Shown here: one piece after another, positions 4,038 through 41,147 of the stretch
Layout: every line of letters begins with the position of its first letter
Numbering within the stretch: the stretch's first letter is position 1
NCBI GenBank assembly: GCA_951406725.2
Contig: OX597840.1
Span: 17,670,001 to 17,734,000, forward strand
Direction of reading: 5' to 3'
DNA from: Octopus vulgaris
Lineage: Eukaryota
DNA length: 64,000 nucleotides
The notes under the pieces: model-generated
The model's input: only the letters and a program-made list of their open reading frames with translations
The model's database searches: none
What the model was told of the DNA's origin: nothing
Made by a program: the position numbers and the translations under genes

Positions 4038-4417
4038 CGTGTGTGTATATTGTAAAGACAACAAGGTAATATTTCAAAGACAGTATTACCATGGAAACAT
4101 CAGAAAAATTGGGTATTATTACCCTTGCAAGACAACTTTTTCCATCTTGTAAGGGTAATAATACTCAATCTTTCTGCTGTATGAAATATTACTTTCTTGT
4201 CTGTATGATACGAAACACATTTGATGCCTCTGTAAAACAAATATAATCTTAAGTTTAAAATGTTGCTTTTTTCAGAAAATGGAAAAATAGTTTTACCATT
4301 CCATAGCAAAATTGTTTGACCAAAAGAACCGGCATTTGCAAGTAAAAATAAATACCGAAAAGAACGCATTTGGCCAAATTTGGACATACAACGATATGTG
4401 TATGTATATATATGTCA

Positions 4418-4495
4418 GGTCACTTTTGAGTGCTACTGGTAACATGTAACCCAGTACAACCTGTTGCATGGTCGGGTCGTCGGCGACTAAACTGG
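4418..4495 (+). ncRNA. HDV-like ribozyme fold at the 5' end of a retroelement
   Basis: P1 GGTCAC/ATGGTC, P2 CCAGT/ACTGG, P3 ACA/TGC, L3 ACCTGT with CC pairing GG (P1.1), P4 hairpin TCG-TCGG-CGA, J4/2 C-T-A-A; one mismatch each in P1 and P3. Confidence 0.6.
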
Positions 4496-4966
4496 CAACC
4501 CCACCAAGGTTGCTTGGTGAGGAGGGTGTTTATTGGACACCCTGCGGGATGAAAAACAAAACCCGTCAAAGGGCGGAGGAACTCTTGAGAGTCAACGGCT
4601 ATCCAATAAATGTCTTAAAGCTGTATCATGCGCGGGGACAGAGAAATAATAGGACTGAATACCCGGTCGCGCGATTAAACCATTGGGAGTGAAGGACTCC
4701 TAGCCTTTGTTAGGGCATCCTTCTAGGAGAAGGTAACTCAGGTAACTGGGATAACTCCAACATAAAACCTGCGGCTCAGTGGTTACCGATGATGTTGACT
4801 TGTTCTTCTTTTCGGATTATGGCTGCTGTTGCTTTGTGAGTGGGATTGACTCAGTGCACAACCTTTCCTCACTTTAAAAAAAATCTTCTTGCACAAGCAT
4901 TGCATGATAACAACATTGATTAAGCTTTGTGCAATGGCCATACTCGATAACGAGGGGGCAGCCACC
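4418..4966 (+). mobile_element. About 550-nt non-coding retroelement resembling an RTE-clade 5' UTR
   Basis: GC-richer block inserted in TA/TG microsatellite; contains GGCATCCTTCTAGGAGAAGGTAACTC, reminiscent of RTE 5' UTRs; no credible ORF. Confidence 0.55.
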
Positions 4967-5697
4967 ATGTATGTATACATATTTATTCAAATATGTATTA
5001 AAAGCCGCTCGAGATATATAAACGAAATCGAACACACCTGCACAAGGTGTGTGTGTTGTTAGTTCGTGGATCAGCTGCAGATTTTAGGTGTAAGAGAATA
5101 CATTCTCTCTGTGCCAGATCTAAAAAACACCTGAAAGTGTGTCATAATCAAGTGAGAAGGGAACCTGATGCGAGTTGCCTCCCTTGACTATGACCTACTT
5201 TGAGGTATTTTTTTTTTACACCAGACACATTGAGAATATATTCTCTTATGCCTAAAAACCATAGCTAACTCCATGTTTATAAATAAACCTTTCGCCTAGT
5301 GTGCTAATGTTTCTGCCAGCTCGCCACCTTAGCAAGGGGGTTATACTACCCAGCTTCGGAAACAAGTTCTTTAGGCAAATCACTATGTTACAAACCAACA
5401 TTGGTTATGGAGCATTATGTGGTGAGGGACAAGCACAAACACACATATACAGTTTCCATCGACCAAATTCACTCACAAAGCATTGGCTGCCCTGGCTCTA
5501 GAGTAGAAGACAACTTTCCCAAGATACCACATAGTGGGACTGAACCTGAAGCTACAAGGTTGCAAAGCAGGCTCCTTGACCACTCAGCCACACCTGTGTA
5601 TATTACATACATATATGTAATTCAAGAGGGTCCTGCCAAACCAATCAACTCCCCAGCCCTTCTACATATGTGTTTACAATAAAATCTGGTCCCTTAC

Positions 5698-36430: not shown

Positions 36431-37219
36431 ACATCATCATCGTTTAACGTTCGTTTTCCATGCTAGCATGGGTTGGACGGTTCAACTGGGGTCTGGGGAG
36501 CCTGTAGGCTTCGCCAGGCCCAGTCTGATCTGGCAATGTTTCTACAGCTGGATGCCCTTCCTAACGCCAACCACTCCGTGAGTATAGTGGGTGCTTTTTA
36601 CGTGCCACCTGCACAGGTGCCAGACGAGGCTGGCAAATGGCCATGATCGGATGGTGCTTTTTACGTGCCACCGGCACGGGGGCCGGACAAGGCTGGCAAC
36701 TGCCACAATTGGATGGTGCTTTTTATGTGCCACCGGCACGGCGCTGGCAATAGTCACTGGCAACGGCCACGTTCGGACGGTTCTCTTATGTGCCACCGGC
36801 ACTGGTATCACAGCTACAGTTTCCATTGATGTTGATCGATTTCGATTTTCACTTGCCTCAACAGGTCTTCACAATTAGGGTTTGTGTCACAAGAAAGAAA
36901 GGTATGCGTAAGTGGGCTGGCTACATCCCAGGTAGAGGCCATGGGTTATGGTCTCACTTGTCCTGCCGGGTCTTCTTACGCACAGCATACTTCCAAAGGT
37001 CTCGGTCTCTGGTCATTTCCTCGGTGAGACCTAAAGTTCGAAGGTCGTGCTTCACCACTTCGTCCCAGGTTTTCCTGGGTCTACCTCTTCCACAGGTTCC
37101 CTCAACCGCTAGGGTGTGGCACTTTTTCACACAACTATCTTCATCCATTCTCGCTACATGACCATACCAGTGCAAACGTCTCTCTTGCACACCACAACTG
37201 ATGCTTCTTAGGTCCAACA
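36431..37219 (-). mobile_element. Shorter 3' fragment of the same RTE LINE family
   Basis: Near-identical C-terminus (RRLHWYGHVARMDEDSCVKKC...GRGRPRKTW) and 3' UTR. Confidence 0.9.
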
Positions 37220-39135: not shown

Positions 39136-41147
39136 CATCATCATCATCATCATCGTTTAGCGTCCGCTTTCCATGCTAGCATGGGTTGGACGGGTCAACT
39201 GGGGTCTGTGAAGCTGGAAGGCTTCGTCAGGCCCAGTCAGATCTGGCAGTGTTTCTACGGCTGGATACCCTTCCTAACGCCAACCACTCCGCGAGTGTAG
39301 TGGGTGTTTTTTACGTGCCACCTGCACAGGTGCCAGACAGAGCTGGCAAACGGCCACGAACGGATGGTGCTTTTACGTGTCACCGGCACGGGGCCAGGCG
39401 ATGCTGGCAACGGACACGAACGGATGGTGCTTTTACGTGCCACCGACACGGGGCCAGACAGAGCTGGCAAACGGCCACGAACAGACGGTGCTTTTACGTG
39501 TCACCGGCACGGGGGCCAGCCGAGGCTGGCAACGGACACGAACGGATGGTGCTTTTACGTGCCACTGACACGGTTGCCAGACAGAGCTGGCACACAGCCA
39601 CGAGCGGACGGTGCTTTTACGTGTCACCGGCACGGGGGCCAACCGAGGCTGGCAACGGACACGAACGGATGGTGCTTTTACGTGCCACCGACACGGGGCC
39701 AGACAGAGCTGGCAACGGCCACGAACGGATGGTGCTTTTACGTGCCACCGACACGGTTGCCAGACAGAGCTGGCAAACGGCCACGAGCGGACGGTGCTTT
39801 TACGTGTCACCGGCACGGGGGCCAGCCAAGGCTGGCAACGGACACGAACGGATGGTGCTTTTACGTGCCACCGACACGGGGCCAGACAGAGCTGGCAACG
39901 GCCACGAACGGATGGTGCTTTTACGTGCCACCGACACGGGGCCAGACAAAGCTGGCAAACGGCCACGAATGGACGGTGCTTTTACGTGTCACCGGCACGG
40001 GGCCAGGCGAGGCTGGCAACGAACACGAACGGATGGTGCTTTTACGTGCCACCGACACGGGGTCAGGCAGAGCTGGCAAACGGCCACGAGCAAATGGTGC
40101 TTTTACGTATCACCGGCACGGGTGCCAGACGAGGCTGACAGCGGACACGAACGGATGGGTCACTTAACCCCTGCTTTCTGATATATGATTTGATTTTGAT
40201 TGTTCTCACTGGTTTTGCCGGGTCTTCTCACGTACAGCATACTTCCATAGGTCTCGGTCTCTGGTCATTTCCTTGGTGAGACCTAGAGTTCGAAGGTCGT
40301 GCTTCACCACCTCGACCCAGGTTTTCCTGGGTCTACCTCTTCCACAGGTCCCCTCAACTGCCAGGGTGTGGCACTTTTTCACACACCTATCTTCATCCAT
40401 TCTCACCACATGACCATACCAGCGCAATCGTCTCTCTTGCACACAACATCTGATTCCTCTTAGGTCCAACTTTTCTCTCAAGGTACTTACACTCTGTCGA
40501 CTATGAACACTGACATTACACATCCAACGGAGCATACTAGCTTCATTTCTCGCGAGCTTACGCATGTCCTCAGCAGTCACGGCCCATGTTTCACTGCCAT
40601 GTATCATGGCTGATCGTACACATGCATCATACAGTCTGCCTTTTACTCTGAGCGAGAGGCCTTTAGTCACCAACAGAGGTAAGAGCTCCCTAAACTTTGC
40701 CCAGGCTATTCTTACTCTAGCCGTTACACTTTCAGCACACCCACCCCCACTACTGACTTGGTCACCAAGATAACGGAAGCTATCAACTACTTCTAGTTTT
40801 TCCCCCTGGAAAGTGACGGAAGTTGTTTTCTGCAGATTTTCAGAGGTTAATGCTCCCGAGCATCTGCCACATACAAAAACCATCTTCCTAGTTAGCCTTC
40901 CTATGACATTGCTGCACCTCTTATGTGTCCATAGCTTACACTTGGTGCATCTTATAGAGTTTCTACCTACACCTTTTCTACAGATCGAGCAGGGCCATCT
41001 ACCTGAAGGCGTTTGTGATTTGTCTACCTTCCTACTTATTAGGACTTTGGTTTTAGCTAGGTTGACTCTAAGGCCCTTCGATTCTAAACCATGCTTCCAC
41101 ACCTGAAACTTCTTCTCCAGTTCTGATAATGACTCAGCAATTAGAGC

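Follow-up and report, generated by a model that had tools for sequence, protein, structure and literature searches.

The 64,000-nucleotide stretch of Octopus vulgaris DNA analyzed here (hereafter, the window) contains a 556-nt retroelement that runs from T4411 to position 4966 and, by comparison with full-length LINE copies, consists of the first 505 and the last 45 bases of an RTE-type LINE (Table 1). Its identity as an internally deleted RTE derivative is virtually certain, and this part of the result is ordinary, the element being of a bipartite non-autonomous RTE kind that is already known. A genome search with positions 4410-4975 returned 3,218 candidates, the best 40 of which are 95-96% identical (window copy aside). 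The string spanning the deletion junction has 2,003 exact genome matches, with 0 for the reversed control; as a count of exact matches, this is a lower bound of at least 2,003 copies. Among the first 30 junction matches by position, 22 extend to G4414 and eight are 5'-truncated, and at 30 of 30 loci examined from the genome search the 3' end lies at 4966 or a few bases off, with (ATGT)n tracts on both sides. A first-pass annotation of this DNA had also placed the 3' end at 4966, which the other copies show to be correct, and its description of an ORF-less, non-autonomous retroposon lacking a tRNA head is borne out: the longest stop-free frame spans 80 codons, and no tRNA gene, A box, or B box, as expected of a tRNA-derived SINE head, was found in the element. 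The tract on its left, recorded at first pass as (TA)n, is in fact a degenerate (ATGT)/(AT) microsatellite, which is the target. Because the candidate left target-site duplication sits inside this microsatellite, it is uncertain; a non-simple candidate is present in only 6 of 30 copies, and the duplication is clear in locus L023 and masked by microsatellite in most. Two sequencing runs, X19 and X20 (organisms D and E), each hold one low-depth contig of ~460 nt that is ~97% identical to the element, for which a related species, host DNA, and transfer are indistinguishable.

TABLE 1. Features of the element and of the predicted fold of its 5' head, in window coordinates.
Feature	Position	Strand	Details
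Candidate left target-site duplication	4399..4408	+	exact 10-mer, repeated at 4968-4977
Inherited 5' leader TATGT	4411..4415	+	T4411 is the 5' end of the element
Predicted three-way junction	4416..4463	+	unconstrained folds of L006 and L351; Rfam alignment; 10 groups
Predicted P1	4416-4420/4459-4463	+	5 bp, CAGGU/ACCUG
Predicted P2 hairpin	4421-4432	+	
Predicted J2/3 base	C4433	+	
Predicted P3	4434-4439/4451-4456	+	6 bp, UACUGG/CCAGUA
Predicted L3	4440-4450	+	
Predicted PK2	4443..4470	+	L3 4443-4448 with 4465-4470; core 4443-4446/4467-4470
Predicted J3/1	C4457-N4458	+	
Predicted P4	4471..4496	+	stem 4471-4474/4484-4487, 9-nt loop, then UAAACCGG
Remainder of partner LINE 5' UTR	4497..4919	+	89-92% identity to L105, L106, L112, L116
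Deletion junction	4920..4923	+	TTAA at both LINE breakpoints; ~3.6 kb lost
Partner LINE 3' end	4920..4966	+	begins 3 bases past its stop codon
(ATGT)n tail and candidate right target-site duplication	4967..4982	+	

The partner LINE was indicated by loose ends of sequencing contigs, which pointed to a second family having 4920-4966 in common with the element. The end of its ORF has 1,708 exact genome matches, and the element's 3' end is present in 20 of 20 loci found via this ORF end and in 20 of 20 fetched LINE copies, the latter having been selected for long frames. Four of these 20 copies (L105, L106, L112, and L116) are full length at ~4.2 kb and have both element ends in common, so that an autonomous LINE sharing both ends, as anticipated at first pass, does exist. 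Identity to the element is 89-92% over 4414-4918 and 94-98% over 4920-4964. Since the ends are common and the ~3.6 kb interior is absent, the element is the LINE minus its interior, joined at TTAA. The partner carries a single decayed ORF with APE, RT, and C2H2 domains, and this one ORF with APE and RT, together with a short 3' UTR and a microsatellite tail, fits the RTE clade; relatives in other animals have the same build. A 5' UTR motif at ~4715-4743 resembles RTE 5' UTR sequence in the Kojima supplement. A partner search via PF00078 gave 0 of 30 loci with the common end, and no match to RTE-2_OV (PMC9115989) was found for the partner in the eight supplementary files compared. Other deletion derivatives of this LINE, with longer retained parts (~680 nt), occur at L071, L073, L078, and L065, and the partner therefore gave rise to several non-autonomous families. 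At L112:725-1320 (oriented), the LINE 5' UTR holds the junction of the short element and part of its tail before LINE sequence resumes, forming a chimera. Loci L038-L060 belong to another abundant LINE family, unrelated to the element, in which many 949-codon frames are intact and the tail is (ATT)n.

The 5' head of the element, its first 60-85 bases, very probably has the fold of an exonuclease-resistant RNA (xrRNA) with a subclass 1a layout, as predicted from comparison of related heads. Subclass 1a is described as having a 5-bp P1, a P3 of 4-8 bp, a variable P2, and a C between P2 and P3, and further a U·A-U triple, a PK1 of 1-2 bp, a PK2 of 2-7 bp, and a P4 (PMC7527734, PMC8571300, PMC8374639). 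The design common to the groups of heads compared here comprises GU, P1, a hairpin of 11-31 nt, a C, P3, C-N, an L3 pseudoknot, and a 4-bp hairpin, and the listed subclass 1a sequence features occur in 10 of 10 groups. In the five own-genome groups, P3, C4433, C4457, and the P1 3' strand were imposed by the search patterns, whereas for the five metagenome heads (each a single copy) no subclass 1a feature was part of the pattern. The C at 4433 between P2 and P3 is thus found in 10 of 10 groups and pattern-free in five. The candidate triple bases U4415, A4435, and U4455, whose contact is proposed by position only, and the candidate PK1 bases G4414 and C4457, which show no variation, are likewise present in all 10; the triple and PK1 positions were assigned from the Rfam alignment and from what we take to be the Zika numbering. 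The length of P2 ranges from 11 to 31 nt across groups, as expected for a helix directed away from the core.

The helices were derived by sequence comparison before the Rfam alignment was examined. In a first Rfam scan, Flavivirus_SLIV (RF01415) was placed at 4409-4480 with an E of 0.17; on 106 nt, the same model scored 24.9 bits (E 0.0097), aligning over its whole length with no non-standard pair and with the same helices. The gathering cut-off of this family is 54.5 bits, and the head, falling below it, would work like that family without being filed in it. Other heads scored 24.9 (L091) and 22.7 bits (L006), and at E ≤ 10 there was no RF01415 match in L087, L096, L097, L099, L100, or L351. 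Unconstrained folding of L006 and L351 yields the same junction, and folding energies are ordinary (z 0.37 to -1.32).

Across 10 rows, 89.9% of cells are paired vs 79.8% in shuffled alignments, with eight pairs changed on both sides, and 0 of 500 shuffles are as high; these values are to be read with the structure having been derived from the scored rows, the rows being related, the fourth scored helix being speculative, and some of the double changes in the 3' helices representing CpG decay. Covariation is shown for PK2 and P4. In PK2, which has a length within the 2-7 bp range, three pairs are changed on both sides and only 74% of cells are paired: the loop and post-P1 strands are ACUG and CAGU in family C, vs CAUG and CAUG in the window (both outside the search pattern), and AGAAUG with CAUUCU in family D. 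In P4, 95% of cells are paired, and two pairs are changed on both sides in family C. P1 and P3 are invariant across rows and therefore carry no covariation, their support being complementarity only. Double changes in P3 do occur in four and six single decayed copies, with 7 of 10 still paired, and were not counted because transition bias explains them. Among young copies, no purifying signal on the head was found (1.2% vs 1.4-1.9%).

The same head stands before RTE lineages that are otherwise dissimilar. A pattern for its 3' half recovered eight metagenome contigs, among which five distinct complete heads keep the same 5' half, absent from the pattern; behind two of these heads (L096 and L100) lies RTE coding sequence. 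Mid-head patterns recovered older families in the same genome. The RTE proteins behind the head are 26% (family C), 43% (an older family), 43-56% (L100), and 39-59% (L096) identical to that of the partner, and the sequence following the head differs between these lineages. Family C, represented by L343 (G000:C3:129216800-129222800) and L344-L392, is an RTE-like LINE of young age that ends in a (TGA)n tail and whose frame of 1,051 codons is intact in several copies. No head of their own was seen at six loci from other RTE families, most of them 5'-truncated, and none occurred among 144 loci from pattern scans of prokaryote genomes (80 listed of 120 matches) and viral contigs (24 and 0). In family D (L300, L301, L432, L315, and L335), the head core occurs without the P4/UAAACCGG part, and no RT match lies in the surrounding 7-8 kb; L432 has the core twice, 200 bp apart. 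The older family has its 124-bp head in five tandem copies at L092:867-1572 (oriented). Tandem xrRNAs are common in flaviviruses.

Xrn1 halts 5-6 nt before the base of P1 (PMC5760640), and the genomic 5' ends, taken as a proxy for the RNA end, lie at this distance. Family A provided 55 distinct copies with readable P1 (from 90 loci), in which positions -1 to -5 are T, G, T, A, and T in 55, 54, 51, 48, and 51 of 55, respectively, and -6 varies (T in 21, G in 20, A in 13, and C in 1). The first break from the ATGT phase falls at -6 in 25 of 55 and at -5 in none, with no break within 14 bases in 15 copies, and the target duplication of L023 ends exactly before TAT. For family C, 54 loci reduced to 45 distinct heads, of which 38 have readable P1 and 21 have independent flanks; CT occupies -5 and -4 in 9 of the 21 independent flanks vs ~6% expected, and -6 is again mixed. 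By these counts, both families stop at -5; the metagenome heads, as single copies, show no boundary of their own. Microhomology or a preference for certain targets might also account for the -5 bases, and the CT of L384 falls within the target duplication. Half of the family C heads (19 of 38) carry one of two common upstream flanks (12 and 7 copies, ~50-500 bases), with 3' flanks that differ where seen, and two of the four full-length partner LINEs (L112 and L116) keep 104 common upstream bases. Trimming is therefore not obligatory, and the retained flanks likewise mean that upstream transcription exists and that untrimmed RNA can be copied. The common upstream flanks of the two family C copy groups vary in length, a pattern expected of 5' transduction. 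Truncated copies confounded a tree built from the 5' regions of family C, which was left out of the evidence. In L020, L095, L096, L100, and L374, extra GTCAG units precede the head, perhaps through template jumping at the 5' end.

The reading that we favor, and hold to be rather probable, is that the element is a deleted RTE copy with a subclass 1a xrRNA-like head, and that an exonuclease halt likely sets the start of its RNA. The element would be transcribed within host or upstream read-through RNA, where its head would form the predicted P1/P2/P3 junction with PK1, PK2, and the U·A-U triple, as covariation and sequence suggest. Xrn1 or Xrn2 may then degrade the upstream RNA and halt at T4411, leaving a protected, unit-length RNA; stopping a 5'-to-3' exonuclease five bases before P1, the head would likely define the RNA start. 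This RNA would be copied by the protein of the partner LINE via the common 3' end. Genomic copies do begin at T4411, the proposed halt base. The end left by an exonuclease is a 5' monophosphate, and that left by a ribozyme is a 5' OH.

The main rival, which we regard as unlikely, is that the head acts as an internal promoter for RNA polymerase II, with a start at ~T4411 and a fold that is protective or incidental. A start site would fit the sharp 5' end equally well (of the 30 copies sampled by position, 22 reach full length), and the invariant sequence of P1 and P3 could be a DNA-level feature. Promoter function was proposed, without a test, for the common ~70-bp LINE head of LP-SINEs (PMC4758252), and in trypanosomes the Pr77 head combines the functions of promoter and ribozyme (PMC4035085). 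However, a DNA element has no need for the pairing of PK2 and P4 that is kept through two-sided changes, the spacing of the conserved blocks varies by 20 bases, and copies end at the Xrn1 halt distance in two families that differ at -5 to -3 (TAT and CTT). The AGGTCA string at window 4417-4422 (P1/P2 strands), which we take to be a nuclear-receptor half-site, bears only on this promoter explanation.

It is quite improbable that the RTE protein instead uses the fold as a signal for recognition or stopping, the 5' end being set during reverse transcription or second-strand joining rather than by processing of the RNA. Such a role would agree with the occurrence of the fold only at RTE element ends in the data examined, and the GTCAG extras and microhomology at 5' junctions (L020, L095, L096, L100, L374, and L379) do show enzyme action at this end; it leaves the conservation of the xrRNA triple, PK1, and J2/3-contact bases unexplained, however, and the 5'-extended copies imply that reverse transcription can traverse the fold. 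No greater probability attaches to a ribozyme of an undescribed class that would cleave itself five bases before P1. The xrRNA architecture already accounts for the conserved bases, the sequence flanking the supposed cut is not the same in different families, and no Rfam ribozyme family matches, although HDV-like ribozymes are reported in RTE elements (PMC5786205, PMC6765202), Perere-3 carries twister variants at this position (PMC8501958), and the family D head occurs in ~200-bp tandem units. Twister, hammerhead, pistol, and hatchet, considered by their general features and by Rfam, gave no match.

Least probable is the reading with which this locus was first annotated, an HDV-like ribozyme that cuts before G4418 and uses C4487 as its catalyst, which is refuted at the sequence level. 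The strings behind it are present (GGUCAC at 4418-4423, CCAGU at 4451-4455, GG at 4474-4475, CUAA at 4487-4490, and ACUGG at 4491-4495), as are the ACA/UGC pairing with A4456 unpaired, the AUGGUC segment with A4468 unpaired, and the UCG/CGA hairpin, and the 3' half (GG, G, hairpin, and CUAA) looks canonical; the GG, the HDV P4, and CUAA all lie within the P4 region of the xrRNA-type fold. An older family carries ACUGG, which gives a perfect P2, and HDV-like ribozymes accept much variation (PMC3774820, PMC4035085). The mismatches A4456 and A4468, which G would repair, are not copy-specific: both are A in 29 of 29 other top-scoring copies, and A4468 and A4456 are each found in 4 of 4 full-length LINEs; in the 22 position-sampled full-length copies, 4456 is A in 16, G in 1, and unreadable in 5, and 4468 is A in 17 and unreadable in 5. 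No G variant at either position is listed in the contigs of four sequencing runs. The consensus thus leaves P1/P3 pairing unrestored, an outcome that had been named beforehand as counting against the HDV fold. The 5' end, placed at G4418, lies seven bases further 5', at T4411. The proposed catalytic C4487, which the HDV fold would leave unpaired, has G4471 as its partner in all 10 rows, inside the covarying 4-bp stem, and the CUAA segment is CUUA in family C and absent in family D.

The individual HDV helices fare similarly. At 4493, where the window copy carries a minority T, 23 of 29 copies have C, so that an A·C mismatch arises in the proposed HDV P2; this helix needs at least 5 bp, and 9 of 14 rows show the mismatch, although R2 ribozymes tolerate mismatches (PMC3774820). 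HDV P1, expected to have ~7 bp starting at the cut and to follow P3/L3 directly, has six positions with two wobbles, the sixth being unpaired in 10 of 11 rows. The 3-bp HDV P3 is paired in 24 and 17% of cells in two cross-family alignments, its A4456:C4467 position in none of 14 and none of 10 rows, and the whole HDV structure in 74 and 67% of cells in alignments with older families and metagenome relatives. The young majority has three mismatches to the HDV descriptor and the metagenome heads have 5-6, with no fit in families B, C, or D. A loose descriptor (≤2 mismatches) matches 2 of 1,000 shuffles of the 92-nt head and has 10 matches on the two strands of the window, the element head among them, and the Rfam scan gave no HDV-like or twister family at E ≤ 10. 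Leaving the length of J1/2 free (a long J1/2 occurs in R2 ribozymes; PMC3774820) gave only copy-specific two-mismatch folds, none in family C, L096, or L100, and hence nothing common. Other HDV registers (P1 as 4414-4420/4459-4465; CUGGU/ACCGG as P2; long J1/2) do not hold across families; the CUGGU/ACCGG pairing is present in 14 of 14 rows of A1, only partial in family C, and competes with P3. Of the idea that the element is released from host transcripts by its own ribozyme, processing from longer host transcripts is probably right and the ribozyme as the device is wrong. Single-copy HDV-like calls at RTE 5' ends can therefore be mistaken.

The xrRNA-like head can be compared with several known systems. 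It resembles the mosquito-borne flavivirus subclass 1a xrRNA (RF01415) in its 5-bp P1, variable P2, single C, and P3 of 4-8 bp, as well as in having bases for a U·A-U triple and PK1, a PK2 of 4-6 bp between L3 and downstream sequence, a following P4, and a boundary 5 nt before P1. It differs in standing at the 5' end of a cellular retrotransposon, whereas the viral element lies in a 3' UTR, and in departing from the RF01415 consensus by paired changes in P1 and P3 (of the G-C to U-A type) and by a P2 of up to 31 nt. In overall build, the element is like RTE-N, RTESINE, and Bov-A, in which the 5' UTR is fused to the 3' terminus of a single RTE LINE and which have a microsatellite tail, no ORF, and no tRNA head (Kojima 2018, PMC5786205, where RTE is named as a source of such bipartite elements). 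There, retention of the 5' end is attributed to a self-cleaving ribozyme, whereas the present head matches no known ribozyme. A folded RNA at the exact 5' end is also a feature of R2/SIDEs, L1Tc/NARTc, HDV-headed RTEs, and Perere-3 (PMC3774820, PMC4035085, PMC6765202, PMC8501958). Like such ribozyme-headed elements, the element is presumably released from a host co-transcript; unlike them, it does not form the HDV core, and its end would come from a host exonuclease. The LP-SINE head (Nimb-17_LMi, I-3_DR, and RTE-9_CPB; PMC4758252) is similarly a short 5' domain found across unrelated mollusc LINEs and short elements; it was read there as a promoter with no structure, and the likeness drawn here is to that description.

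What the present analysis adds is the refutation of the HDV reading, the identification of the partner LINE, and, for two families, the boundary at -5. Defined 5' ends of promoterless non-LTR elements have been explained in print by promoters or ribozymes. We lean toward the view that animal RTEs carry a flavivirus-type xrRNA, that carving from read-through transcripts by a host exonuclease is a third route to the 5' end, and that this would be the first non-viral subclass 1a member, with a possible common origin with the viral element. A 2021 review describes xrRNAs in cellular RNA as still awaiting discovery (PMC8374639). Among the titles and abstracts listed from the open literature, none reports an xrRNA at a retrotransposon, and no description of the head was found in the open literature on RTE ribozymes or by motif strings. 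If the head blocks Xrn1, thousands of animal genomic copies would represent cellular xrRNAs, LINEs would have a third 5'-end mechanism, and the origin of the flaviviral fold would become testable.

Several minor features were also recorded. Upstream of the element, window 4093-4184 is a long near-perfect inverted repeat, probably a hairpin of MITE-like type, to which miRNA models match weakly. A GC-rich unit of 61-63 bp forms arrays at window 36590-36741 and 39309-40158, and a U6 snRNA-like copy (41.8 bits vs a cut-off of 44) lies at L006:498-597.
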